A DNA stretch of 64,000 bases, from assembly GCA_963849325.1 (NCBI GenBank), contig CAWKHF010000013.1, positions 1 to 64,000 of the forward strand, read 5' to 3'. The translations under genes were made by a program, and so were the position numbers. Of this stretch, positions 5,459 through 19,790 are shown piece after piece. The notes beneath the pieces were generated by a model, which saw nothing but the letters and a program-made list of their open reading frames with translations, was not told the origin of the DNA and did not search any database. The number at the start of each line of letters is the position of its first letter. Positions within the stretch are counted from its first letter, which is position 1. The DNA comes from an uncultured Planctomycetota bacterium. Its GTDB lineage: Bacteria; Planctomycetota; Planctomycetia; Gemmatales; Gemmataceae.

Positions 5459-5678
5459 GACCGGGCGGAACAAATCGGAGCGGGAGGCGTAGATCCCCGC
5501 TCCGGGAGTTTGGCGCACCGATCCCGAGTCGGTCTTGACTGGCCCGTTCGCCGACGCTATCTGGGGGGTCTCTGCTCCGATAGAACCGAGTTAACCGGCC
5601 CCCTAGGACGGTCCTGGAGTCGAGGGGTTCCAGGATCGGGTTTCGTGCATGGCCGCGGTCACACACGGCGGGGGCATT

Positions 5679-7259
5679 ATGAGCCATTCCGTTGGGACCC
5701 GACGCCCGCGGGCCGTTTCCTGCCGGGCAGCCAAGACGCTGGCCGGCTTCGCCCTGCTGGCCGGCGGTTGCACGACCCTCCAGGAATGGGTGCGGAACAG
5801 TTTCCAAGTCGGCCCGAACTACCAGAAACCTCCGGCAGCCGTCGCCCCGGCGTGGATTGATGCCGCCGACCCCCGCGTCGCCGGCAAGGCTGCGGAAGTC
5901 GATGCCTGGTGGGACGTTTTCCAGGACCCGGTGCTCAATTCCCTGATCGAGACCGCGTACCGCCAGAACCTGGACCTGAAGACCGTGGCGACGCGCGTCC
6001 TGCAAGCCCAGGCGCAGCGGAACATCACGGCCGGCAATCTCTTCCCGCAGTCGCAAAGCGCGCTCGGCGCCTACGCGCACGCCCAAATCAGCAAGAACCT
6101 CGGATTCTTTCCCACCACGCCCCTGGGAGGAGGCTTTCCGACCAACCTTAACCTGTGGGTCACCGGCTTCAACGCTTCCTGGGAACTCGATTTCTGGGGC
6201 CGGCTCCGCCGGGCCATCGAGTCCTCGAATGCGGAGCTAAGTGCCTCGGTCGAAAGCTACCATGACGCCCTGGTCACGCTGCTGGCCGACCTGGCCACCA
6301 ATTACGTGCAAATCCGCACATTCCAGCAGCGGATCGCCTATGCCCGCCGCAACGTCGAGATCCAGCGAGGCTCACTGCGCCTCGCCGAGGCGCGGTTGAA
6401 GCAGGGGAAGGCTACCGCGCTGGACGTGAAGCAGGCCCGCTCCAGCCTGGCCCAGACCGAGTCGTCGATTCCGCCCCTGGTGATCGCCTTGCGGCAGGCC
6501 AACAACCGCCTCTGCGTCTTGCTAGGCCAACCGGCCCAGGACCTCTGTCTCCACGAGGCGCCCATCCCGGCGACGCCCCCGGAAGTGGCGGTGGGTATTC
6601 CCGCCGAACTGCTCCAGCGCCGCCCGGACGTGCGGCGAGCGCTGCGAGAGGCAGCGGCCCAGAGTGCGCAAATCGGCGTGGCCGAAGCGGATTTTTATCC
6701 TCAGATCGGCATGACGGGTTTCATCGGCTATGTGGCGGATGACCTGCGGAGGCTTTTTGCGGCGGACAGTTTTACGGGCCTCATCCTCCCGAATTTCCAG
6801 TGGAAAATCCTGAACTACGGCCGCATCCGCAATAACGTCCGCGCACAGGATGCCCGCTTCCAGGAGAAGGTCTTGCAGTATCAACAAACGGCATTGACGG
6901 CCGGCCGGGAGGTGGAGGACGCCCTCGTGGCGTTCCTCCAGTACCAATTGCAAGCGCGCAGCCTGGAAGAGAGCGTGAAAGAGGCCGAGGATTCCGTGGA
7001 CCTCGTTCAAGCCCAGTACAAGGGAGGACTCGTCGATTTCAACCGTGTGTTCACCACGCAGTCCCAGCTCGTGTCCCAGCAGGATCAGCTGGCGGCCGCC
7101 CGCGGAAACATCGCCACCAGTCTGATCGCGGTCTACCGTGCCCTCGGCGGAGGATGGCAGTCCTTCACGAACGGCCCGGTGCCCCTGGCATGTACGATGC
7201 CTCCCGCGAAGCAAGCGGAAGAGACGGGGGCCGAAGATCAAGCCGCGGATTCGGAATGA
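5679..7259 (+). CDS. NodT/TolC-family outer-membrane efflux lipoprotein
   Basis: Lipobox 'LAGGC', 'VGPNY', 'WELDFWG', 'ELLQRRPDV', 'YRALGGGW'. Start could be 5649. Confidence 0.9.
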   Translation: MSHSVGTRRPRAVSCRAAKTLAGFALLAGGCTTLQEWVRNSFQVGPNYQKPPAAVAPAWIDAADPRVAGKAAEVDAWWDVFQDPVLNSLIETAYRQNLDLKTVATRVLQAQAQRNITAGNLFPQSQSALGAYAHAQISKNLGFFPTTPLGGGFPTNLNLWVTGFNASWELDFWGRLRRAIESSNAELSASVESYHDALVTLLADLATNYVQIRTFQQRIAYARRNVEIQRGSLRLAEARLKQGKATALDVKQARSSLAQTESSIPPLVIALRQANNRLCVLLGQPAQDLCLHEAPIPATPPEVAVGIPAELLQRRPDVRRALREAAAQSAQIGVAEADFYPQIGMTGFIGYVADDLRRLFAADSFTGLILPNFQWKILNYGRIRNNVRAQDARFQEKVLQYQQTALTAGREVEDALVAFLQYQLQARSLEESVKEAEDSVDLVQAQYKGGLVDFNRVFTTQSQLVSQQDQLAAARGNIATSLIAVYRALGGGWQSFTNGPVPLACTMPPAKQAEETGAEDQAADSE

Positions 7260-7541: not shown

Positions 7542-8924
7542 TCAAACGAGTTCCGGCAGCGGGTTGGCGTCCTCCTCGGCCAGGTACTGCGGCCGGCCGG
7601 TGAGGTCCGGCAGCGTCGCCCGGTGGCAGTCGATCCCGAGGTTGTGGTAGAGGGTAGCGAACAACTCGCCCCACGTGACCGGCCGGGCGATCGCCTCTCC
7701 CGCGATCCGGTCGGTCGCCCCGATCACCTGCCCCGTCTTCATCCCGCCGCCGGCCAGCAGCGCACAGTTCACCTGCGGCCAGTGGTCGCGTCCGACCTGG
7801 GCGCTGATCTTCGGCGTCCGTCCGAACTCGCCCATGACCACTACCGTGCAGTCCTCGTCCAACCCCCGCTGGTGAAGGTCCTCGACCAGGGCGCTGACGC
7901 ACTGGTCGAAAACCGGGAAGTCCTCCGCCTCGCGTAAGAAGATGGAGTTGTCGGCGCGGCCCTCGACGTTCTTGCCGCCGTGCCAGTCCCACTTGCTGTA
8001 GTTGAGAGTGACCACCCGCGCCCCGGCCTCGACCAACCGCCGGGCCATCAGCAGGCTCTGGGGCACCCGCGGGGCGCCGTTGCCGTCCATGAACACCTTC
8101 GGGTTCCCGGTCCCGTACCGCTCGATCACGCGCACCGGCTCCTTCGACAGGTCGAGGGCGTCGGCCATGCGGGAGGACGTGAGCAGCCCGAACGCCTGTT
8201 CGGTGAAGGCGTCCATCGCCTTGACCGCGCCGTTGGCGTCGGCGTCGCGGCGCAGGTCGTCGAAGCGCTTGAGGAGCGTCTTGCGGTCGGCGAGGCGATC
8301 GACGGAGAGGCCGCGGAGGAGCATGTCTTCGCGGGTCTTGCCCATCGCGCGGAACGGGGCCATCGACGGTCCGAGGAACCCCGGCCCCGGCTCGTTGTAC
8401 GGGCCGTGGGTGCATGGGTAACACAGGCTGATAAACGGCGGGACGCTCGGATCGACCGGGCCTTGCAGCTTCGCCACCACGGAGCCGAACTGTGGCCACC
8501 CGCCGCTCGGAGTCGGCTTCCTGGGGTGGTGGCCGTTGTAGACCTGAATCGCGTCGTGGTCGGCCTGGTTGCCGACCAGCGAACGAACCACCACGAGCTT
8601 GTCCATGATCCGGGCGAGCCGGGGAAGGGCCTCGCAAATCCGCACCCCGGTGACGTTGGTTGCGGCCGGCTTCCACGGGCCGGCGACTTCCTTGGGGGCG
8701 CCAGGCTTGAGATCGAACAGGTCTTGGTGAGGCGGACCTCCGACCAGATAGATGAGGATGACCGACTTGTGGGACGAGCGGATCCCGGCGGCCGCCTCAG
8801 CCCGCAAGAGACCGGGGAGGGTGAGGCCGCCCAGGCCCAGGGCGCCGATCCGAAGGAAACCGCGGCGGGACAGGTGGTGCGGGACAAAGGGTACGGGAGC
8901 GGTGAGGTCGTGGCATGTCGGCAT
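7542..8924 (-). CDS. DUF1501 domain protein (Tat-type signal)
   Basis: 'SRRGFL', 'GGPPHQDLFDLKP', 'ARRLVEAG', 'GEFGRTP', 'GRDHW'. Confidence 0.9.
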   Translation of the reverse strand: MPTCHDLTAPVPFVPHHLSRRGFLRIGALGLGGLTLPGLLRAEAAAGIRSSHKSVILIYLVGGPPHQDLFDLKPGAPKEVAGPWKPAATNVTGVRICEALPRLARIMDKLVVVRSLVGNQADHDAIQVYNGHHPRKPTPSGGWPQFGSVVAKLQGPVDPSVPPFISLCYPCTHGPYNEPGPGFLGPSMAPFRAMGKTREDMLLRGLSVDRLADRKTLLKRFDDLRRDADANGAVKAMDAFTEQAFGLLTSSRMADALDLSKEPVRVIERYGTGNPKVFMDGNGAPRVPQSLLMARRLVEAGARVVTLNYSKWDWHGGKNVEGRADNSIFLREAEDFPVFDQCVSALVEDLHQRGLDEDCTVVVMGEFGRTPKISAQVGRDHWPQVNCALLAGGGMKTGQVIGATDRIAGEAIARPVTWGELFATLYHNLGIDCHRATLPDLTGRPQYLAEEDANPLPELV

Positions 8925-9309
8925 GGGTAGCCTCGGGAGCTAGGGAACGGCGGGTCTGGGCCGGTGCCGGATGCCGGCCGGTGCGCGGCGAGGTACAGGA
9001 ACTAGTTTCCCCGAGTTTCGCGCCCGGGTCAACGCCTTTGAGTGGATTTCGCTACTCGACACGCCGCTGCCGGCCCTGGCCTTGCAGCTCGCGATTCATG
9101 TAACGCTCTCGCGTTATTCGAAAGGACGGCATCCCCGGCTAAGGTAGCCTACCGAATGGCTCACGTCGCCCCTCGCTCGCCTTAAGTTTGCAAATAATCT
9201 TTGAAGCTTCGGCGGGACGATGCTAGGATGGGAGTGACTCGAAGCCTGCCCCTGCCGAACCTCCCGCGATGAGTTGCTCCCCACCGCGAGTACACCTGAG
9301 GGCGGAACG

Positions 9310-10779
9310 ATGAATCTTCGATCCCCCGGGTCCATCTTGATCGTCTCCTGCTACGAGTTGGGGCATCAACCGCTCGGGGTGGCCCTGCCCCTGGCGTTTC
9401 TGGAACGAGCCGGTTTCGCGCCGGATGCGTTGGACATCTCGGTGCAGGACTTCGACGAGGCCAAGGTCGCGCAGGCACGCCTGGTCGCTATCTCGGTCCC
9501 CATGCACACGGCCCTGCGCCTGGGCGTCCGCGTCGCCGAGCGCGTCCGGCAGCTTAATCCGGCCGCGGCGGTTTGTTTCTATGGACTGTACGCGGCCCTG
9601 AACGCCGACTATCTCCTCGAACACGGCGGCGACTACTGCATCGGCGGCGAATGCGAGACGCCGTTGGTCGCCCTCGCCGAAGCACTGGATGCCGGACGAA
9701 TCGGCGCCGTCGAGGGAGTCTATCAGCGCGGCCAAGCGGCTCAACCGTTTCTGCAGCGGCTGCCGTTCCCGCTGCCGGTCCGCTCGCCGCTGCCGCCGCT
9801 CGAAAAGTATGCTCGCCTCGAACACAAGGGCGAAAGCCGAGTGGTCGGCTACGTCGAGGCGAGCCGCGGCTGCCGTCACCTGTGTACGCATTGCCCGATC
9901 CCGCCCGTCTACGGCGGACGGTTCTTCATCATTCCGCGGGACGTCGTCCTGGAAGACATTCGCCGCCACGTCCGCGCGGGGGCCACGCACATCACGTTTG
10001 GCGATCCCGACTTCCTCAACGGTCCGGGACACTCCCTGAAGATCGTCCGCGCCCTGCACGCGGAGTTCCCCGAGCTGACTTTTGATTTCACTGCCAAGAT
10101 CGAGCACGTCTTGAAGCATCCCGAGGTGTTCCCCGAGTTGGGCGCCTCGGGCTGCCTGTTCATGGTCTCCGCGGTGGAGTCGCTCAGCGAGCGCGTGCTC
10201 ACGGTGCTGGAGAAGAACCACACGAGGGCGGACATCGAGAAGGCGCTGAAGATTGTCCATGCGGCCGGCATCGCGCTGCGGCCCACCTGGGTCGCCTTCA
10301 CGCCCTGGACCACCCTCGAGGACTATCGGGAAGTGCTGGAGTTCATCGAGGCGAATGGGCTGATCGACCACGTGGACCCCGTGCAGTACACTATCCGCTT
10401 GCTGGTCCCACCGGGTTCCTATCTGGCGGAGCGCCCCGCCATGCGGCCGTACCTGGGCCCGCTGGACGAAGCGGCGTTCAGCTACCACTGGGACCACCCC
10501 GACCCGCGCATGGACCGGCTGCAAAAAGCGGTCAGCAAGCTAGTCGAGGCGGACGCGACGTCGGGCGCGGACCCGGCCGATACCTTCTACCGCGTGCGCG
10601 ATCTGGCGGCCGGACGGAAGCCGAACGGTGTTGTGCATCCGCTGCCTCGGGATCGCATGAGAGCACCGCGGTTGAGTGAACCGTGGTTCTGCTGAGCGGA
10701 GCCGACCGAGGGTCAGTTGGACCCACTGCACAGCTCCAAAGCGATACTGCCCGTTGTCCCGATGCTGCCCACCGTTTAG
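9310..10779 (+). CDS. B12-binding-domain radical SAM (seleno)protein with CUAEP tail; in-frame TGA at 10693-10695 read as Sec
   Basis: CxxxCxxC motif 'CRHLCTHC'. After 'EPWFC' the TGA is followed in frame by AEPTEGQLDPLHSSKAILPVVPMLPTV to TAG 10777-10779, giving the C-U-A-E-P tail of the CUAEP/CCAEP family. Confidence 0.85.
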
Positions 10780-10794
10780 AAAGACTAACGCTCG

Positions 10795-11493
10795 ATGAAC
10801 ACGGCCCAGCAACTGCAAGACCTTCTTCAACTCCAGACGGCCCCGGTCGCGCTGGCCTTTCAGGACGCGCCACCGGCCCATCTTCCCCGCATGGCCGCGG
10901 CCGCGCCCTCCGGCTGCACGTTTTGGAAGCGTGCCGCCGCGGGGCAAGCCTTCTACACCGAAGTATCCGACCACTACAACTGCCCCATCGGGGCCTACAC
11001 CCACGGCGTCGATTTGCCGCCGGCGCAGGCGAAGGAGTTGCAAGACGTCGTGGAAACGATGATCCAGCTGGGCTATCTCCGGCCGGAAGAAGTTCCCGGC
11101 ATTCCACGCCGGCAGAGCAAGCTCGGCGTCGCTCTCTACGCGCCGCTGGCGACGGCGCCGTTCGAGCCGGAGGTCGTCCTCGTGTGCGGCAACGCCAAGC
11201 AGATCATGCTGCTGACGGAGGCGGCGCAAGCCGCCGGCGTCGGCGCCGAGGCGCCGCTGATGGGACGTCCCACCTGTGCGGCGGTCCCGACGGTCCTGCA
11301 AACCCAGCGCAGCGCGGCCAGTCTCGGCTGCATCGGCAACCGCGTTTACACCGAGATGGCCGATGACGAACTGTACTTCGCCCTGCCCGGCGGCCAACTC
11401 GGCCGAGTGGTGGAGAAGTTGGCAACGATCGTCAACGCGAACCGCGAGCTGGAGAAGTACCATCGTGCGAAACGAGCAACCCTAGGCGTTTGA
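10795..11493 (+). CDS. DUF169-family Cys-rich protein
   Basis: 'PVAL', 'GCTFW', 'CPIG', 'PTCAAVP', 'SLGCIGNR', 'DDEL' pattern. Confidence 0.75.
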   Translation: MNTAQQLQDLLQLQTAPVALAFQDAPPAHLPRMAAAAPSGCTFWKRAAAGQAFYTEVSDHYNCPIGAYTHGVDLPPAQAKELQDVVETMIQLGYLRPEEVPGIPRRQSKLGVALYAPLATAPFEPEVVLVCGNAKQIMLLTEAAQAAGVGAEAPLMGRPTCAAVPTVLQTQRSAASLGCIGNRVYTEMADDELYFALPGGQLGRVVEKLATIVNANRELEKYHRAKRATLGV

Positions 11494-11521
11494 CCCGATC
11501 CCCGGGAGAGGAGCCATTCTC

Positions 11522-12133
11522 ATGCAACACAGAATGTGGGCGGCCGCTCTGGGCCTGGTGTTTGGCGTCGCGCTGCCCGCCAGCGCCGAGATCATCAAGG
11601 GCCGCCTGGCCATCCGCGGCGCCGAAATGAGCTGATGAGGCGGGATGGCGTGTGACGCCATCGCACGTCAGTATGACGTGGACGCGGATTCGACGAAGCT
11701 CAATCGGCCCCAAGAACAAAAGGGCGGCTATCAGTTCGGCACCATCGAGTTTGTCGCCAAGAAGGGCAAGTCGATTGACCTGGACAAGATCCACGAGTCG
11801 ATCGCCGCCACGCGCCTGTCGGGCGGCACCAACATGCGCATGGATTACCTGGAAATCACGGCCAAAGGCGAGGTGATCGAGCGGGACAAGCAGCTGGTCT
11901 TGAAGGTGTCCGGCACGGGACAGGAATTCGTGCTGATCGAGGAACCCACGGCGAAGGACGCCCTGAAGCGTCTGCGCGAGGCCGTGGCGCGGGGGGACAA
12001 GGTGTCCACGGTCACGGGCCGCGTTCCCGGCTGGAACGGTCGTTTTCCCGATGTCCTGGCGGCGTGGGCGAAGACCCCCGACAGTCAGAAACGGAAGCTC
12101 GCGGTGGTGGATTTCAAGGTCGAGACGAAGTAA
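11522..12133 (+). CDS. Secreted HMA-like protein with tandem in-frame TGA-TGA (11633-11638); putative UU selenoprotein, 203 aa
   Basis: RBS GGAGAGGAG. The reading MQHRMWAAALGLVFGVALPASA-EIIKGRLAIRGAEMS-U-U-GGMACDAIA is continuous with ORF 11645-12133, and the signal peptide is present only upstream of the TGAs. Confidence 0.7.
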
Positions 12134-12157
12134 AGAACTGTCCCGCAATGACTTCCC

Positions 12158-12224
12158 CGTTTAGCCGCGACGCGCAGCGGAGCGCGGGCAGTGCCCGCGC
12201 TCCGCTGCGCGTCGCGGCTAAACG
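12158..12224. repeat. Perfect palindrome, family A copy 1 (33-bp arms)
   Basis: CGTTTAGCCGCGACGCGCAGCGGAGCGCGGGCA-G-TGCCCGCGCTCCGCTGCGCGTCGCGGCTAAACG. Confidence 0.9.
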
Positions 12225-12261
12225 AAGTTATTGCTGGACGCGTCCAATTAGAAAGACAACG

Positions 12262-12549
12262 ATGAGAGACCAGCTACGCAGCTTGTCCGGCGCTCTGCTC
12301 GCCGTGGCGGGCGCGGCGCCGACCTGAACGACGGCGGGGTTCCTGGCCCTGCTCGGGTTAGCGGGGAGCGCCACGGCCCGACTGGTGACCCACTGGCTTG
12401 CGCCGGTCCTGATCGGCCTGTCGGTGTTGTTCCTGCTGCGCTCGTTTTACATCCTGTACGTGCGGCGGCGCGGCACGCGGGTCAGCGCCGTCATTACCTG
12501 GATTTCGGCGGTCTTCGTTCTCGGCTTCTGGACCTGGCAGCTGATGTAG
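12262..12549 (+). CDS. MerT/MerF-like 3-TM membrane protein with in-frame TGA (12325-12327); putative selenoprotein, 95 aa
   Basis: MRDQLRSLSGALLAVAGAAPT-U-TTAGFLALLGLAGSATARLVTHWLAPVLIGLSVLFLLRSFYILYVRRRGTRVSAVITWISAVFVLGFWTWQLM. U lies at the end of TM1, where MerT/MerF have the Cys pair. Absent as a full-length ORF from the track. Confidence 0.75.
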
Positions 12550-12559
12550 AGGAGTTCCC

Positions 12560-13423
12560 GTGAACGCGCTTCGCATTGTGGGCTGCCTGTTGGCATCGTG
12601 CCTAATCGCCCAGGGATCCGCGCGCGGCCAGGACGCCGCCAAGGAGATCACCAACTCCATCGGGATGAAGCTGGTCCTGATTCCCGCGGGCAAGTTCGTC
12701 ATGGGTTCGCCGGCCGGCGAAGCCGAGCGCGACGCCGGTGAAGATCCGCACGAGGTCGTCCTCACGCGGCCGTTCTACCTCGGCGTCTACCCGGTCACGC
12801 AGGGCCAGTTCCAGAAAGTGATGGGCAAGAACCCGTCGTTCTTCCATCCGAAGAACGGCGGCAGTCTGGACCACCCGGCCGATCAGGTGCGGTGGGGCGA
12901 CGCCCGCGAGTTTTGCACGAAGCTCTCGGCGCTTGCCGAGGAGAAGAAGGCGGGCCGGACCTACCGCCTGCCGTCCGAGGCCGAATGGGAGTACGCCTGC
13001 CGCGCCGGCACCACCACGCCCTTCAACGTCGGCGACGCGCTCTCCTCCAAGCAGGCGAACTTCAACGGCAACTTCCCCTACGGCCGCGCTCCGAAAGGGT
13101 CTTTCTTGCGCCGGACGGTGAAGGTCGGCTCGTACCCGCCGAACGCCTGGGGCCTGTACGACATGCACGGCAACGTCTTGCAGTGGTGCAATGACTGGTA
13201 CGACCCGGATTACTACCAGAAGAGTCCCAGGGAAAATCCGAAGGGGCCGGACAAGGGCGTGGTTGCGACCGGCTTCCGGAGCGATTTCTTCGTGGTGGTC
13301 CGCGGCGGTTGCTGGCTGGACGAAGGTCGGGCCTGCCGTTCGGCCCGCCGTTTTCGGCTGCAGCAGAGTGAGCCTTATCGCTGGACCGGCTTTCGCGTGG
13401 CGTGCGACGTGGCCGGCAAGTGA
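12560..13423 (+). CDS. FGE-sulfatase (SUMF1) domain secreted protein
   Basis: 'NSIGMKLVLIPAGKFVMGS', 'RLPSEAEWEYACRAG', 'NAWGLYDMHGNV', 'GFRV'. RBS overlaps the upstream stop. Confidence 0.9.
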   Translation: MNALRIVGCLLASCLIAQGSARGQDAAKEITNSIGMKLVLIPAGKFVMGSPAGEAERDAGEDPHEVVLTRPFYLGVYPVTQGQFQKVMGKNPSFFHPKNGGSLDHPADQVRWGDAREFCTKLSALAEEKKAGRTYRLPSEAEWEYACRAGTTTPFNVGDALSSKQANFNGNFPYGRAPKGSFLRRTVKVGSYPPNAWGLYDMHGNVLQWCNDWYDPDYYQKSPRENPKGPDKGVVATGFRSDFFVVVRGGCWLDEGRACRSARRFRLQQSEPYRWTGFRVACDVAGK

Positions 13424-13444
13424 CAATCCGGCACATACCAGGAG

Positions 13445-13551
13445 AACCACGGATAACACGGATAAGAAAAGCAGAGAAAGCCGTATCCAGCCGGCACACC
13501 CTTGTTTCATCGGTATCATTAATATCCGCGTTATCCGTGTTATCCGTGGTT
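13445..13551. repeat. Inverted 9-mer tandem element, family B copy 1
   Basis: AACCACGGATAACACGGATAA ... TTATCCGTGTTATCCGTGGTT. Confidence 0.85.
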
Positions 13552-13573
13552 GAAGACCTTTGAGGGCGGTCCC

Positions 13574-13888
13574 ATGAAAAACGAGCTTCGCAGTGTGTCG
13601 GCCGCGATCATGAGCGTGCTTGCCGCGCTGCCGTGGTGAGCCATCACCTGAATGGTCCTTAATGGGACTTCAGCCCTGCTCGGGTTAGCGGGGAGCGTCA
13701 CAGCAACCGCCGTCAGCGGCTGGATTGCCCCAGTCCTGGTATGCGCTTCGATCGTCCTGATTGGACGGTCGTTCTACGTCATTTACGTGCGCGGCATTCG
13801 CACGCGAGCGACCGTCGTAATTGCATGGTCCGCTCTGGTGTTCATCATCGGCTTCTGGACGTGGCAGCTGACGATGGGCAGAGGGTGA
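13574..13888 (+). CDS. Second MerT/MerF-like membrane protein with two in-frame TGAs (13637, 13649; UxxxU)
   Basis: MKNELRSVSAAIMSVLAALPW-U-AIT-U-MVLNGTSALLGLAGS... is in frame with ORF 13652-13888. It is a clear paralog of 12262-12549 on both sides of the TGAs. Confidence 0.75.
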
Positions 13889-13918
13889 CCGCTTCCGCGT
13901 GGGTTTACGAGGTATTCT

Positions 13919-14302
13919 ATGTTCGGGCGAACGGGCGTGGCGTGGGTGCTGGCGGCCTCGGCGTTCTGGCTGTCCGCTTGCGGTCGGGTACACAAGCCGG
14001 AGAAGAGCTTACCGGCGGAGACGAAGGCGGAGTCTCCCGCCGCTGTGCAGCGGATCACGTTGCACGTGCCGGGCATGATCGACCGCCAGGGCATCACCTG
14101 ACTTACCTGAAAGAACGTCGTTCAAGAAGCCCTGTTAGGGCTTCCAGGCATCGAGAAGGTCGACGTCGATCTGAAAAAAGACCTGCTCCACGTTCGTTAC
14201 GATCCGGCCAAGGTGACACCAGAGCAGATGCTCCAGGAGATTGACAAGCTCGGGTACGAAGGGAAGATCCTTGCGGACGGCGACACCGCGTCCAAGCCTT
14301 GA
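13919..14302 (+). CDS. MerP/CopZ-like HMA lipoprotein with UxxU (TGA 14099, 14108), 127 aa
   Basis: Lipobox 'LSAC'. ITLHVPGM...GIT-U-LT-U-KNVVQEALLGLPGIEKVDVDLKKDLLHVRYDPAKVTPEQMLQEIDKLGYEG is a full HMA pattern only if both TGAs are read through. Confidence 0.85.
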
Positions 14303-14337
14303 GCGGTTCTCCCGCGACCAAGAGGGAGGTTTCGCCG

Positions 14338-14649
14338 ATGCGTGTACTGTTTCGATCCATCCTGGGAATGTTTATGGCCGACCGAGGTCCATCGGACAGC
14401 CCGCCGTCCCCCGCGGATGTGGTCGCCCACGTTCCGGGCCTGACCTGACCGCGCGGCTGACCGGATCGGGTGCGGAAAGCACTCGGTACTCTACCGTGGG
14501 TAGAGCAAGGCACGATTCAGATGAACTTCAAGGCCCGCGAGCTGAGGTTTTGCCTGAAAGACAAGAGCCAATGCGACGACGAGGCGCTCAAGAAGGCGCT
14601 CAAGGCCGAGGGGTTTCCGGACGTCCAGGTCCAAACCGGGCCGTCGTGA
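14338..14649 (+). CDS. HMA-domain protein with UxxxU (TGA 14446, 14458), 103 aa
   Basis: RBS GGGAGG. ...VVAHVPGLT-U-PRG-U-PDRVRKALGTLPWVEQGTIQMNFKARELRFCLKDKSQCDDEALKKALKAEGF. Absent from the ORF track. Confidence 0.8.
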
Positions 14650-14694
14650 CCACGTGGGGCCACGGTCCCGATACCGTAATCAAGGAGAGCATTG

Positions 14695-16077
14695 ATGTCC
14701 GCAATCCGCAGCGGCGCTTCCGTTGCACTCGGGCCGCAAGAACTGGGTCCGCCCGTGAACGTGGCGGAAGCCCCGGCCGCGACGCTCCGGGAGATCGTTC
14801 GCCGGCACGGGACGCCGACTTATGCCTACGATTTGCAGCGCATCCGCACGCAGGTGGACCGGCTGCGCGAATCCCTTCCGCGGCAGGTGGAGCTGTTCTA
14901 TTCGCTCAAGGCCAACCCCTCTTTAGGACTCTGCGGCTTCCTGGCGGACTGCGGCCTGGGAGCGGACGTCGCCTCGGCGGCCGAATTGGTGACGGCCCGC
15001 GAAGCGGGATTTGCCGCGCAGCGTCTCCTGGTGACCGGACCGGATCGTTCGTCCGCCTTGCTGGCCGAGCTGCGTTCCGTCCCCGAGGCGATCCTGTCCA
15101 TTGATTCGCTCAGCGAATTGCAGCAACTCGCCGGCCTGGGGCTGTCCCACCGCGCGCTGCTGCGTCTGCGGCCAGACTTCCCTTGCCAGGCGGTCTGCAC
15201 GGCCGGCCCGGACTCTCGTTTCGGCCTCCTTTTCGACGAGCTGGAACGCTGCCGGGAACACATCGGCCCCGGCGGCATCCGCGTCATCGGCTTCCATATC
15301 TTCGCGGGCTCGCAGGTGCTCGATGCCGCCGCCGTGGTCCAGCACCTGCGCGGCGCCCTGGACGAGTCGCTCCGCGCCGCCGAAGTGCTCGGCCTGGCTC
15401 CGGAGGTCATCGACCTGGGCGGCGGCTTCGGCGTCCCCTACGCGCCGGGAGAGCCTGAGCTGGATCTGGACCCCATCCGCGCAGCGCTGCACGCCATCGT
15501 CCAGGGGGCGCCGCAGAGCCGTATCTTCATGGAGCTGGGCCGGTACTTGGTGGCGCAGTCCGGCTGGTATCTGACCTCGGTGCTTGCGCTGCAACGGCAG
15601 GCCGGCCGCAAGGCGGTCGTGGTGGACGGCGGCACTCACCAACGAGGCGACATGTGCGGCATCGGTCTGCGCCACAAGGCGACCCCGGTATCTCTCGCGG
15701 ATCGGCCCGGTCCCGTCAGCCCGACGGATGTTCTCGGCTGCCTGAGCCATCCGGGGGACGTGTTGGCCGAGGCTTATCCGCTGCCGCCGCTGGCACCGGG
15801 CGACGTCGTGGCCTTTCCCAACGCCGGGGCTTACGGGCTGTGCGCCTCTCCCTGGTCCTTCAACGGACATCCCATCGCCGCCGAGGTGGTTTTCGATGGG
15901 GAGCGAATCGAAACCATCCGTTCGCGCCCGCCGACCCGTGCCGTCCTGGAGGGTCAGGTCCGCCTTCGCCCGGCGGAACCTTCGATCGCAAACGGCGAAG
16001 CGGCGCTGGAGCATTATACCGAGCTGAAAACCGTGACTGTTCAGCTGAGCCATACCGCCGCCGCACCCAAGGGTTGA
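14695..16077 (+). CDS. PLP-dependent fold-type III decarboxylase (LysA/ODC family)
   Basis: 'HGTPTYAYD', 'YSLKANP', 'DVASAAE', 'SRFG', 'GFHIFAGSQ', 'DLGGGFG', 'ELGRYLV', 'AGAYG'. Confidence 0.88.
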   Translation: MSAIRSGASVALGPQELGPPVNVAEAPAATLREIVRRHGTPTYAYDLQRIRTQVDRLRESLPRQVELFYSLKANPSLGLCGFLADCGLGADVASAAELVTAREAGFAAQRLLVTGPDRSSALLAELRSVPEAILSIDSLSELQQLAGLGLSHRALLRLRPDFPCQAVCTAGPDSRFGLLFDELERCREHIGPGGIRVIGFHIFAGSQVLDAAAVVQHLRGALDESLRAAEVLGLAPEVIDLGGGFGVPYAPGEPELDLDPIRAALHAIVQGAPQSRIFMELGRYLVAQSGWYLTSVLALQRQAGRKAVVVDGGTHQRGDMCGIGLRHKATPVSLADRPGPVSPTDVLGCLSHPGDVLAEAYPLPPLAPGDVVAFPNAGAYGLCASPWSFNGHPIAAEVVFDGERIETIRSRPPTRAVLEGQVRLRPAEPSIANGEAALEHYTELKTVTVQLSHTAAAPKG

Positions 16078-16201: not shown

Positions 16202-17329
16202 TCAGCCCAGGAGCTTTTCCAGCTGCGGATAAGCCAGCTGGCCGCTCCACTCATGGCCGCCCTCGAAGCGATCAACGAGCAGCCGATCCTTGGCGTCCAG
16301 CGCCGCATAGACGCGGCGCATGCGCGTCAGGGCGTCGTCCGCCCGGCGCGGCTCGATCAGTCCATCGCGCGAGCCGACCTCCCAGACCGCCGGCCGCGGC
16401 GCAATCAGTCCGCCAATCTCCGGCACGTCGCCATACTGGAGCAGGCCGGGGATGACCTGGGCGCCGCAGCTATAAGGCCCGGCGATGCGTTCCTGCATGA
16501 CGTTGAGGGCGCCGGAAACAACGGCGATACGGATGCGCGGCTCCAGGGCGGCGGTGAGCATGGCCATGCGTCCGCCGTAGGACAGGCCGACGCAGCCGAG
16601 ACGCTCGGCGTCTACGCGCGGGTGCCGGGCGAGCAGTTCCAGCGTCCACAGGCAATCGCGGAGGTTCTCGGCGATCAGCAGTTTGCCTAGCAGTTGCAAG
16701 CGGATGAAGGTGATGGCGCACGCATCCTGCTTGCCGTAGGCGTCGCGCGGACCCAGGCGATCGCCGAACGGCGTCAGACACGGCACCGCCACGACGTAGC
16801 CGCGACGGACCAGCTGCCGGCCGTAATCGTACTGGCAGTTCCGGATCGCCTGGGCGACGCCCGGCAGATCGTCGCGGCCGGCGACCGGGTGATGGCCGAA
16901 GGGTCCGTGTCCGTGGATCGCCAGCACGCCGGGACGCGGCTTGTCGGACTGGCCGCGCGGCAGCAACAGGTACAGCGGCAGCGACGGATGTCCCTCGCAC
17001 TCCAACCGCAACTGCTCGCGGCGATGGTCGTCCAGATCGACGGATTGCCGGACCACCGTTTTCCACTTCGCCGGCGGCGCATGGGGACCGAGCAGGGAGC
17101 GCAGCTTGGCGGCGAACTCGGCTTGCCACTTGTGGCCGTCCTCGGCCGTGCGGCCACGAAACTTCATCGCCAGTGGCGCCTTGTCCGCTTGCTGGCGAAT
17201 CCATTCGTCGGTGTCGCCGCGGCGAGGACTTTCCGCGGCATTCCCACGTGGAAGTGACGGCGCCGCCAGCACGGCGGACGCCCCCAACAGAAAGCGACGA
17301 CGGGAACGGTTCGTGTTGCGCTGGGCCAT
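16202..17329 (-). CDS. Tat-exported alpha/beta hydrolase
   Basis: 'SRRRFL' signal, 'HGHG', nucleophile elbow 'GLSYGG', 'GGHEW'. Confidence 0.85.
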   Translation of the reverse strand: MAQRNTNRSRRRFLLGASAVLAAPSLPRGNAAESPRRGDTDEWIRQQADKAPLAMKFRGRTAEDGHKWQAEFAAKLRSLLGPHAPPAKWKTVVRQSVDLDDHRREQLRLECEGHPSLPLYLLLPRGQSDKPRPGVLAIHGHGPFGHHPVAGRDDLPGVAQAIRNCQYDYGRQLVRRGYVVAVPCLTPFGDRLGPRDAYGKQDACAITFIRLQLLGKLLIAENLRDCLWTLELLARHPRVDAERLGCVGLSYGGRMAMLTAALEPRIRIAVVSGALNVMQERIAGPYSCGAQVIPGLLQYGDVPEIGGLIAPRPAVWEVGSRDGLIEPRRADDALTRMRRVYAALDAKDRLLVDRFEGGHEWSGQLAYPQLEKLLG

Positions 17330-17464
17330 GATTTCCTTCTCCGGGTGTTTCGCTTGCAACCGATTGTACACCGGCGAGCCGGCGGCGTCCGCCGGCCGCC
17401 TGTGTTGACGCCGCCCGAAGCCGCCCCTATCCTCTCTCCATCCCTTCCCGGATGGAGAGAGCCG

Positions 17465-19790
17465 GTGAACCTCCCCCGTCTATTGCTGCGAAGGCTGCTC
17501 GGCCTACGCTTGCCGTTTACGCAAGGCACTCTCCGCGTGCCGGGCCTGCAATCCCCTGTTCGTATCCACCGCGACCGCTGGGGCATTCCGCACATCGAGG
17601 CAGACAACGAGCGCGACGCCTATTTCGGCATCGGCTTCTGCCACGCCCAGGATCGCACCTTTCAGCTTGAACTCCTGCTGCGCGTCGTCCGCGGCACCCT
17701 GAGCGAGCTGGTCGGCGCCGAGGCTCTGCCGATCGATCGGCTGTCGCGGCGGATCGGCTTTCACCACGCCGCCCGCGAACAATGGCCGGTGCTCAACGCC
17801 GAGGTGCGGGGCATGCTCGACGCCTATGCGCGCGGCGTCTGCGCCGGCGCGACGCACGGCCTGCCGCGACGGCCACACGAGTTCGCCCTGCTGCGCTCGG
17901 CGCCGACGCCGTGGACGGCGCTGGACAGCCTCGGCGGCGTCAAGTTGATCTCGTTCACCCTGGCCAGCAACTGGGACATCGAGCTGGCCCGGCTGCGCGT
18001 GCTGCTCGAAGACGGACCCGAGGCACTGACGGCCCTCGATCCGGCCTATCCGCCGTGGCTGCCGGTGACGGCGCCGCCAGGGCGACAGGCCGGGCCGATG
18101 CTGGATCGTCTGGCTGAGGAGCTGAAGGCGTTCACCGCCGTCATGCGCCACCGGCGGCTCGAACAACTGGGCCGTCGCCGCCAGCCGCACCGCCACCGGC
18201 CGGCCGCTCCTGGCCAACGATCCGCACCTCGACGCGCGTTTGCCGCCGCACTGGTATCTGATCCACGCTCGCACACCGCAATGGTCGATGGCCGGAGCGA
18301 CCTTCCTCGGCGGTCCCGCCGTGCAGTGCGGCCACAACGGCTTCGCCGCCTGGGGCGTGACGGCCGGACTCATCGACAACACCGACCTGTTCCGCGAACA
18401 GATCGGCCCGGACGGCCGCAGCGTGCGCCAGGGTGACAGTTTCGTACCCTGCCCGGTGCGCGAGGAGGTCATCGCTGTGCGGGGCGCAGCCCGCGTCACC
18501 GAGCGCGTGCTGGTTACGCCGCGCGGCCCCATCGTCAGCCCGGCCCTGCGCGGCTGTGCCGAAGCGTTGTCGCTGCGAGCAGTGTGGCTCGATCCGCGGC
18601 CGCTGGACGGCCTGCTGCACTTGCATCGCGTCCGCAGCTTCGACGAGTTTCGCCGGGCCGCCGTGTACTGGCCGGCCGCGTCGCAAAACATGGTCTATGC
18701 CGACCAATCCGGCGCCATCGGCTGGCAGATGTTCGGCCAGGCGCCGAAGCGTCGCCGAGGCTGGGGACTGGTCCCGGCACCCGGTTGGGAACCGGACGCC
18801 GGCTGGGAGTCGGATCTGGTGCCGGCCGAGCAGCTGCCGCACGTCCAGGATCCGGCCGAGGGCTTCGTGGCCACGGCCAACAATCAACCGCTGCCCGATG
18901 GCGTCGGTCCCTTCCTCGGCGTGGACTGGCTCGATGGCTACCGCGTCGCCGCCATCGCCCGCGAACTGAGCGCCCGCGCCGATTGGGACGTGCCGCGCAC
19001 GCTGGCCTTGCAGATGGACCAGCACACCGTCGCCTGGGACGACCTGCGCGACGCCGTGCTGTCCGCTCCCGCCGGCGATGCCGACGCCCGGCAAGCCCTG
19101 GAGTTGCTGCGCCGCTGGGATGGCCGGGTGTCCGTCGATTCGCCGGCCGCGACCATGTATGAGTTGTTTCTGTCGGAGATGGAAGGCCGGGCGGCGCGGG
19201 CGAAGGCGCCGCGCACGTTCGCCACCGTCCTCGGCGAGCCGCTGGGTCCGATCACGCCGTACAACTTCCTCTGCTACCGCCGTACCGGCCATCTGGCCCG
19301 GCTGTTGCGCGAGCAGCCCGCCGGCTGGTTCCAACGTCCCTGGCCGGACGAAATCGCCGACGCGCTGTCCGCCGTGGTGCGCCGACTGCGGACGAAGCAC
19401 GGGACCGACCCGGCCCGCTGGGCTTTCGGTCGGCTGCGGAAGCTCATTCTGCGTCACCCGCTCGGCCGCGTCCGCTGGCTGGCGCCGATCTTCAATCGCG
19501 GGCCGATCCCCTATGGCGGCGATGCCGACACCATTAACCAGGGAGCCGTGCTGCCGCTCGATCCGCTGGCGGCGGTGGACACCATCGCCTCGCTGCGCAC
19601 CGTCCTCGATGTGGGCGCCTGGCACAACAGCCGTTTTTCCCTGCCCGGCGGCCAGTCCGGCAATCCGTTGTCTCCGCACTATGACGATCTGTTCCCTTTG
19701 TGGAAGCGAGGCGAGGGTGTGCCGATCGCCTGGACCGAGGAAGAGGTTCGCCAGGCGGCGGTTCGGACGCTCGAACTGACCCCGATTTAG
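17465..19790 (+). CDS. Penicillin acylase family Ntn-hydrolase, frameshift near 18145
   Basis: 'RDRWGIPHI', 'HAQDR', 'GGSNNWAV' and 'LANDPHL' in the shifted frame, 'GGQSGNPLSPHYDD'. Confidence 0.88.

Follow-up and report, generated by a model that had tools for sequence, protein, structure and literature searches.

Ten predicted selenocysteine codons in a nine-gene cluster of Gemmataceae-like planctomycetes with a possible role in metal(loid) handling

The stretch of DNA analyzed here (the window) comprises 64,000 nucleotides from an uncultured planctomycete of the Gemmataceae lineage (GenBank assembly GCA_963849325.1, contig CAWKHF010000013.1, positions 1 to 64,000). It belongs to contig C13 of a 14-contig, 8.16-Mb assembly with a completeness of 84.7%, and its G+C content is approximately 65%. 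At positions 9310-16077, nine genes run head to tail on the plus strand with intergenic gaps of approximately 10 to 150 bases, and ten TGA codons interrupt six of them in frame. Comparison with related loci makes it close to certain that these ten codons are read as selenocysteine (Sec, or U in one-letter code) by SelB, and it is well supported that the nine genes form one conserved unit of some Gemmataceae-like planctomycetes. Six selenoproteins with ten Sec codons in one cluster are exceptional for bacteria. Taken as a whole, the cluster has about an even chance of being a selenol relay that feeds a radical S-adenosylmethionine (SAM) enzyme forming a carbon-element bond, followed by decarboxylation of the product. 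The genes, with families assigned by Pfam and NCBIfam profile searches, are as follows in the order found in the window.

9310..10782, plus strand: CUAEP-tail radical SAM selenoprotein with a B12-binding domain, 489 residues, U462 at 10693 (NF040546, 704 bits)
10795..11493, plus strand: DUF169 protein, 232 residues, no Sec, true TGA stop (PF02596, 104 bits)
11522..12133, plus strand: secreted two-domain protein with adjacent Sec residues (UU protein), 203 residues, U38/U39 at 11633/11636 in GAEMSUUGG
12262..12549, plus strand: MerT-like membrane selenoprotein 1 (MerT1), 95 residues, U22 at 12325 in the motif APTU
12560..13423, plus strand: secreted FGE/PvdO-fold protein, 287 residues, no Sec (PF03781, 169 bits)
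13574..13888, plus strand: MerT-like membrane selenoprotein 2 (MerT2), 104 residues from the ATG, Sec codons at 13637/13649 in PWUAITU
13919..14302, plus strand: HMA lipoprotein with a UxxU site, 127 residues, U61 and U64 at 14099/14108, lipobox LSAC
14338..14649, plus strand: HMA-like protein with a UxxxU site, approximately 103 residues, Sec codons at 14446/14458 (PF00403, 18.6 bits)
14695..16077, plus strand: fold-III pyridoxal phosphate decarboxylase, BtrK-like, 461 residues (PF02784, 126 bits)

In-frame TGA codons and their decoding

The first-pass annotation of this DNA had reported ten in-frame UGAs in six of nine genes, and all ten were confirmed at the positions listed above, each in frame and followed by a reading that runs on to a later stop. 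The N-termini of orthologues place the likely starts of the MerT2, UxxxU and decarboxylase genes at 13574, 14338 and 14695, respectively. The genome of the window (G000) contains selB, selA and selD, with scores of 313.7, 286.7 and 386.9 bits, respectively, all above the cut-offs, and a tRNA-Sec (72 bits) that ARAGORN called SeC(tca); all four of the genes that the annotation had proposed to look for, selA, selB, selD and selC, are thus present. The selA gene lies in three pieces in different frames (G000:C12:1294158-1295519), and this break is probably due to assembly indels.

The same codons recur in related genomes. The UU protein was searched in 200 further genomes of the same family, of which 13 matched, and two in-frame TGAs were present in 15 of the 16 UU matches listed (the window included), the sixteenth not covering that region. 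When codons were read column by column in the loci of these 13 genomes, TGA was found at both sites of the UU protein (14/14 family copies), at the Sec column of MerT1 (13 of 14 copies), at both columns of the UxxU lipoprotein (5/5), at both columns of the UxxxU protein (8/8) and at the Sec column of the radical SAM enzyme (9/9). The first Sec column of MerT2 held TGA in all five copies and the second held TGA in two and alignment gaps in three, because those three copies read WUU rather than WUxxxU. Across phyla, column 462 of the radical SAM enzyme was TGA in 57 of 75 loci and Cys in the other 18. Homologues of the MerT-like and HMA proteins also carry Cys at the Sec columns, as PWCC and CxxC, respectively. 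The proposal that the TGAs fall at Cys positions of their families was therefore borne out for these three groups; for the UU protein, no homologue with Cys at the Sec sites turned up.

An artefact, whether by sequencing errors, pseudogenes or a TGA that is a sense codon everywhere, is so improbable as to be negligible. Frameshifts do occur elsewhere in this assembly of limited completeness, as in selA, in a penicillin amidase gene of the window that is split into two overlapping open reading frames (17258-19787) and in a LysA-like gene that matches in two separate pieces (G000:C2:574164-575355). No frame break was seen within the nine-gene stretch, and the earlier claim that frameshifts affect much of the window and spare the cluster is supported in part. 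The same TGAs are common to 13 other assemblies, so indel errors cannot explain them. TGA is also an ordinary stop here, since the DUF169, MerT2 and UxxU genes end at TGA where their orthologues end, and an altered genetic code is thereby excluded. Moreover, homologues have Cys at these columns, and not Trp or Gly.

In the sequencing runs searched, the share of sampled words in any one run was at most 0.16. Contigs of relatives, 85-95% alike across the cluster, came from four of the 24 listed runs, and relatives of the cluster were present in soil metagenome runs. None of 40 inspected differences, taken from approximately 1,550 between the window and these relatives' contigs (and not the window's own reads), fell in a TGA codon. 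RNA libraries also yielded contigs, one example covering 13909-14217; because DNA can be present in libraries of this kind, these contigs are no proof of transcription. A promoter scan of the locus returned 0 promoters, and terminator-like sites numbered 7 compared to 5.0 expected.

Conserved hairpins were found downstream of the TGAs in all six Sec genes and are regarded as putative selenocysteine insertion sequence (SECIS) elements.

10710..10724, plus strand: SECIS-like hairpin of the radical SAM gene, 5-bp stem, loop AGTT(G), 17 nt past the TGA
11644-11662 and 11664-11680, plus strand: two conserved hairpins after the UU codons (15 sequences)
12348..12365, plus strand: conserved hairpin after the MerT1 TGA, loop CGGGTT (13 sequences)
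13675..13692, plus strand: MerT2 hairpin with the same motif as that of MerT1, 26 nt past the second TGA
14126..14144, plus strand: conserved hairpin after the UxxU codons, 8-bp stem (7 sequences)
14466-14486 and 14489-14505, plus strand: two conserved hairpins after the UxxxU codons (9 sequences)

The radical SAM hairpin was aligned in 58 sequences, namely the window copy and 57 TGA-bearing members from many phyla, and compensatory changes were seen in four of its five pairs. The mean folding energy of this region was -17.5 kcal/mol in TGA members compared to -13.5 kcal/mol in the 18 Cys members (p=0.005), in which the hairpin is weakened or absent. The UU hairpins showed compensatory changes in 3 of 13 pairs, despite the alteration of encoded residues. 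In a comparison of the 20 codons after the last Sec with the remainder of the gene, the fraction of identical codons was 0.91 against 0.63 in the UU gene (p=1.4e-6), 0.81 against 0.69 in the UxxU gene (p=0.034) and 0.81 against 0.70 in the UxxxU gene (p=0.015). In the UxxU stem the only changes were G-C to G-U, and the second UxxxU stem was nearly invariant, synonymous sites included. For MerT1 the same test was not significant (0.71 against 0.66, p=0.31); its codons 29-33 were identical in all copies counted there, and six pairs of its hairpin were kept with none changed on both sides. The sequence CCCTGCTCGGGTTAGCGGGG is common to the MerT1 and MerT2 hairpins and was found in all six MerT2 copies, with a TTA-to-TCA variant in the loop. 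Rfam gave no bacterial SECIS match at the locus and two matches in all, both at chance level, so the hairpins rest on the alignments made in this analysis. The assignment of the ten TGAs to Sec draws on the machinery in the genome, the conservation of the codons, the hairpins downstream and the Cys of homologues at the same columns taken together. The tandem UU, UxxU and UxxxU sites with their hairpins would be natural test cases for the decoding of closely spaced UGAs by SelB.

Gene callers had been expected to miss or fragment these genes, and public homologues are indeed shortened: MerT2 to 78 residues and the UU protein to 162 residues, with the fetched ones beginning at a Met past the last TGA. 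Standard annotation can hide whole pathways in this way, leaving shortened stubs in the public record. The idea that the Sec trait exists solely for this cluster was considered and rejected, since selA occurs in 183 of the 201 family genomes; the trait is general in the family and the cluster is rare.

Distribution and gene order of the cluster

Complete nine-gene sets were found in seven genomes, the window and loci L157, L158, L161, L162, L164 and L166. Locus L160 has eight of the nine genes. Contig ends truncate the set in L156, L159, L165 and L168, decayed remnants are what is left in L163 and L167, and L169 consists of a 3-kb contig on which two cluster genes lie. The order of the genes varies, with at least two arrangements: in the window the radical SAM gene leads, and in L158, L161 and L162 it stands between the FGE-fold and MerT2 genes. 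As to conserved gene order, the nine genes stay together while their order is permuted between genomes. The cluster is single-copy in the genome of the window. Beside the nine-gene set, no further conserved neighbor was found in the family loci, a regulator, a reductase or an efflux gene included.

Of the 201 genomes sampled from the family, 14 have the UU protein and 12 the radical SAM enzyme; 11 have both, three the UU protein by itself and one the enzyme by itself. The exceptions are G584, where the start of the radical SAM gene lies at a contig end, the decayed copies of G479 and G519, and G407, which has the enzyme only, near a contig end in a 79%-complete genome. These genomes are related and not independent (9-11 genera are involved), so the count somewhat overstates the association. 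A search of 400 other genomes from the phylum did not find the UU protein, and the radical SAM enzyme was present in eight of them.

An accidental adjacency of two unrelated modules, a radical SAM-DUF169 unit, perhaps with the decarboxylase, and a Mer-like selenoprotein set, would account for the occurrence of the enzyme elsewhere without Mer-like genes, and also for the 4 kb that separate the radical SAM part from the Mer-like part in L164. It is nevertheless very improbable, because the enzyme lies amid the Mer-like genes in L158, L161 and L162 and because the two parts occur together in most family genomes that have either, a count inflated by kinship as noted above.

Two relatives carry an additional gene within the cluster, at L157:11359-13437 (minus strand) and L164:2787-4977 (plus strand), whose product has a thioredoxin-fold (AhpC/TSA, redoxin) domain set among HEAT repeats. 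The redox motif of this protein is F-U-U in L157 and G-U-L-V-U in L164, and it is probably a further selenoprotein, which would raise those clusters to 12 Sec codons.

Families of the encoded proteins

The nine genes proved to be as the first-pass annotation had described them, except that the decarboxylase resembles BtrK more closely than LysA and the MerT-like proteins fall far below the MerT cut-offs. The radical SAM enzyme belongs to NF040546, the CUAEP/CCAEP-tail radical SAM (seleno)proteins: its 704 bits compare to a cut-off of 500, and residues 9-471 match profile positions 1-467 of 468. The next-best model was ArsL (NF040542), with 348 bits over residues 9-410, below its cut-off of 450. 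The B12-binding domain scored 36.8 bits against a cut-off of 32.1. In nine orthologues from the phylum, the CxxxCxxC motif (C188, C192 and C195) was invariant and the tail, WFCUAEPTEGQ in the window, followed the pattern W-F/Y-C-U-A/S-E-P-T without exception. Only C461 and U462 of the tail ligands were invariant, and outside the cluster-binding motif there was no further invariant Cys. On this sequence evidence the enzyme is an uncharacterized sibling of ArsL. Its closest public relative, from a 'Gemmataceae bacterium', is 70% identical.

The CUAEP-tail family comprises at least 581 loci in many phyla. Downstream of the enzyme, NifU-like and ATP-grasp L-amino-acid ligase genes were each found in 30 of 85 loci, and both in 20 of 85. 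A DUF169 gene followed in 19 of 85 loci by clustering and in 21 of 80 by tblastn. Outside the Gemmataceae-like family, the enzyme with its NifU-like and ATP-grasp partners looks like a small biosynthetic cassette whose product would be an amino acid or dipeptide in modified form, and an amino-acid product is in keeping with such amino-acid-handling partners. A gene for an ATG22-like major facilitator superfamily transporter was also seen in seven of the cross-phylum loci (L060-L139).

The UU, UxxU, UxxxU and FGE-fold proteins are predicted to be extracytoplasmic from signal peptides or lipoboxes read by eye, and no such N-terminal signal was seen by the same reading in the radical SAM, DUF169 and decarboxylase proteins. 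The signal peptide of the UU protein ends at ASA|E. This protein matched no Pfam or NCBIfam family. In its structural model (pLDDT 86.6), the N-terminal domain is ferredoxin-like with the order beta-alpha-beta-beta-alpha-beta, and U38/U39 follow strand 1 where helix 1 begins, that is, at the beta1-alpha1 junction where HMA domains have their CxxC site.

A profile search with the MerT-like proteins gathered 108 proteins, of which the full-length members carry LPWCC at the position of U or UU. The CC pair of MerT lies in its first membrane helix. MerT2 occurs in two forms, PWUxxxU and PWUU, and some relatives from metagenomes (P0120, P0122 and P0124) carry it as a fusion with the HMA protein. 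The UxxU lipoprotein scored 52.6 bits with PF00403, above the gathering cut-off of 24.8, and 63.1 bits with NF041115 (UxxU_metal_bind), below the cut-off of 95; in alignment, its U61 and U64 occupy the CxxC positions of the metal-binding domains of copper ATPases. The model NF045683 for a MerT/CopZ fusion-like selenoprotein reached 21.5 bits against a cut-off of 375. In the UxxxU protein of the window (14338-14400), Asp stands in GMFMADRG where six other genomes have the lipobox Cys; the window protein may not be lipidated, or the Asp may be an assembly error.

Four Cys of the DUF169 protein (C41, C63, C161 and C179) were invariant in 12 orthologues, and no solved relative was found for it by sequence. 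In 12 orthologues of the FGE-fold protein, C119, C147, C210 and C259 were invariant and C251 was present in eight. Among solved structures this protein was closest to PvdO (5hha, E=5e-24), ahead of true FGE, and its match with solved FGE stops at residue 235, short of the C-terminal part. The catalytic copper-binding Cys pair of FGE lies in that C-terminal part. The decarboxylase was closest to BtrK (7ru7 and 2j66, E approximately 2e-51), followed by diaminopimelate decarboxylases (approximately 1e-37), and its score with the lysA model TIGR01048 was 198.6 bits, below the cut-off of 297.9. The LysA-like gene on contig C2 is a separate gene of the same genome.

Proposed pathway, alternatives and known systems

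The first-pass annotation had proposed a periplasm-to-cytoplasm selenol relay that feeds a cytoplasmic modification, and this is still the best reading. Outside the cytoplasm, the UU, UxxU and UxxxU proteins would capture a thiophilic metal or metalloid and hand it to MerT1 and MerT2, which have their U or UU in membrane helix 1 and would pass it inward. The final position of the element would be in the cytoplasm, at the Cys and Sec of the radical SAM enzyme's C-terminal CUAEP tail. Acting like ArsL, the enzyme would then move SAM's 3-amino-3-carboxypropyl (ACP) moiety to the element and give a 2-amino-4-(element)butanoate, from which the BtrK-like decarboxylase would remove the alpha-carboxylate, possibly with the substrate held on a protein selenol or thiol, to leave a 3-aminopropyl-element compound. 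The DUF169 protein and the periplasmic FGE/PvdO-fold protein may be accessory parts. Each of these steps is plausible from family resemblance and gene linkage, and the relay gains from the kinship of the enzyme with ArsL, from genes that stay together despite the shuffling of their order and from the co-occurrence of the enzyme with the UU protein. The conjunction of all parts, an all-selenol import relay with Sec-Sec sites, an ACP-element bond and decarboxylation in aerobic soil planctomycetes, is somewhat unlikely and is offered tentatively.

The model for the chemistry is the arsinothricin (arsQML) enzyme. According to the portions available of two preprints, ArsL cleaves SAM to methylthioadenosine, places the ACP group onto As(III) and holds As(III) by the three Cys of a C-terminal RCCLKC motif (10.1101/2024.02.01.577332; 10.64898/2026.04.29.721666). 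Like the window enzyme, ArsL has a B12-like N-terminal domain, a CxxxCxxC core and a short, chalcogen-rich C-terminal tail; the window tail, WFCUAEP, has one Cys and one Sec where ArsL has three Cys. The cluster is without the ArsM and ArsQ of the ArsL system, its partners being the decarboxylase, the DUF169 protein and the Mer-like selenoproteins. For the decarboxylation, the closest solved relative is BtrK, which serves in butirosin biosynthesis as the L-glutamyl-[BtrI carrier protein] decarboxylase. BtrK decarboxylates an alpha-amino acid tethered via its gamma position to a protein thiol. The geometry of that substrate resembles a protein-held 2-amino-4-(element)butanoate, which by analogy could be the substrate in the window; unlike the BtrK system, the cluster has neither a carrier protein nor an ATP-grasp ligase.

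Several points weigh against the proposed relay. Binding, direction of transport, element and product are all putative here. Mer-like genes were found beside the radical SAM gene in 0 of 80 cross-phylum loci and in 0 of 8 loci from other genomes of the phylum (tblastn), so that outside the family the substrate evidently arrives without a relay. The family loci have no conserved regulator or efflux gene to name the element. Two chalcogen ligands in the tail, compared to three Cys in ArsL, make the transfer of ArsL chemistry uncertain, and methyl transfer by the enzyme is possible, since the B12-binding domain is kept. The resemblance to Mer proteins is also distant: MerT1 and MerT2 scored 29.4 and 26.8 bits, respectively, with merT_RC607 (NF033560, cut-off 130), neither had a Pfam MerT (PF02411) hit at E<=0.01, and the UxxxU protein lies below the PF00403 cut-off of 24.8. 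Finally, the HMA-like fold of the UU protein is a weak assignment from its model. HMA domains were among the best structural matches, with Z of 6.0-6.7 (VIA-align, all Z<=7), a range that the tool describes as common, and Foldseek returned no PDB match at E<=0.001.

As to the element, soft cations such as Hg(II), Cu(I), Ag(I) or Au(I) and the group of As(III), methyl-As(III) or Sb(III) are, by rough judgment, equally possible, each falling moderately short of an even chance. The linear two-coordinate cations (Hg, Cu, Ag and Au) are favored by the two-ligand tail and the HMA/MerT-type carriers, and As, Sb or methyl-As by the kinship of the enzyme to ArsL. By the same rough judgment Se or Te is rather unlikely, and any other element still less likely.

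The case for selenium bears on an alternative in which the selenols carry Se (or Te or S) as Se-Se or S-Se adducts, and not a metal. The radical SAM enzyme would then put the ACP group on the chalcogen to give a compound of the selenohomocysteine type, and the decarboxylase would convert it into an aminopropyl selenol. A bridging chalcogen would fit the two ligands of the Cys-Sec tail, NifU-like genes lie downstream of the enzyme in the fraction of loci from other phyla given above, and a thioredoxin-fold protein with a UU or UxxU-type motif is inserted in the clusters of two relatives. In addition, the ArsL mechanism is described, in the available part of the source, as requiring a nucleophilic atom with a lone pair (10.64898/2026.04.29.721666). 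HMA and MerT-type proteins are, however, known carriers of cations, the tail is Cys-Cys in 18 of 75 members of the enzyme family, and no selenium-metabolism gene was recognized among the nine with Pfam and NCBIfam. Chalcogen trafficking is accordingly judged unlikely.

Resistance to, or sequestration of, Hg(II) or another toxic cation in the manner of a mer operon is equally unlikely. The radical SAM enzyme would here be a B12-dependent methylase or unrelated, and no ACP-element bond would be formed. The cluster does resemble mer in having a periplasmic HMA-fold carrier with paired ligands and a small membrane protein whose helix 1 bears a ligand pair, weak as the MerT and MerP similarity is, and the enzyme retains a B12-binding domain that scores above its cut-off; MerP- and MerT-type selenoproteins had moreover been predicted earlier. 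It differs from mer in having selenols for thiols, two membrane proteins and three periplasmic carriers. MerT has a second, cytoplasmic Cys pair, which was not seen in the MerT-like proteins of the window. Against this alternative, the cluster contains no MerA, MerB, MerR or efflux gene, the decarboxylase would stay unexplained, and ArsL shares the N-terminal domain, its model matching from residue 9. The word cobalamin has 0 occurrences in the available text of the ArsL preprint (10.1101/2024.02.01.577332).

The component families, namely the CUAEP-tail radical SAM, MerT-like and MerP/HMA UxxU selenoproteins, were known before, so that the description of a hidden system holds for the cluster and not for its parts. 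Haft and Gwadz, in the portion of their preprint available, treat NF040546 as an uncharacterized CU-motif selenoprotein and mention a small group of MerT-family selenoproteins (10.1101/2022.07.06.499078). MerT-, MerP- and UxxU-type selenoproteins appear as predictions in the accessible parts of surveys (PMC9312934; PMC2398784, the Global Ocean Sampling (GOS) survey). The models NF041115 and NF045683 and the MerP/MerT selenoproteins of the GOS survey have Sec for Cys in HMA- or MerT-type proteins, as in the window, whereas those two models do not extend to UU or UxxxU spacings or to the family of the UU protein.

The nearest concepts to the cluster are the selenocysteine-assisted organometallic (SAO) locus and HgcAB. 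In the same portion of the Haft and Gwadz preprint, the SAO locus has several selenoproteins with CU/CC motifs, is proposed to carry out heavy-metal and carbon-metal chemistry and is described as exclusively anaerobic (10.1101/2022.07.06.499078). As far as that portion describes it, SAO has an ABC transporter SaoABP, a MerB-like SaoL and SaoE, and the nine window proteins match no such family in NCBIfam or Pfam, whose coverage of SAO models was not checked. Unlike SAO, the cluster was found here in one planctomycete family only, with relatives in soil metagenomes. In the literature covered, which left out supplements and subscription journals, no description of the nine-gene cluster was found, nor of a link between an ArsL-like radical SAM enzyme and a Mer-like relay, of the UU protein or of adjacent UU sites; the statement of the first-pass annotation that no such architecture had been described was upheld to that extent. 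The locus is best placed as a selenoprotein-rich metal(loid)-handling type with a new composition.

These findings give the CUAEP-tail family a testable context, that of an ArsL-like enzyme with an uptake relay and a decarboxylase. If the pathway exists as proposed, it would add a new class of aminopropyl organometal(loid) metabolites and a biological route to organometallics besides methylation and arsinothricin synthesis. It would also widen the biology of carbon-metal(loid) bonds in soils, which matters to the speciation of Hg, As, Sb, Se or Te and to how mobile they are.

Upstream of the cluster, the window encodes an OEP outer-membrane efflux protein (5607-7256, plus strand) and a DUF1501 protein (7545-8939, minus strand), neither of which is conserved beside the cluster elsewhere. 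The genome of L157 has two UU paralogues, and an aldehyde dehydrogenase gene (L157:6632-8128, minus strand, 613 bits) lies there between MerT1 and the second UU copy.

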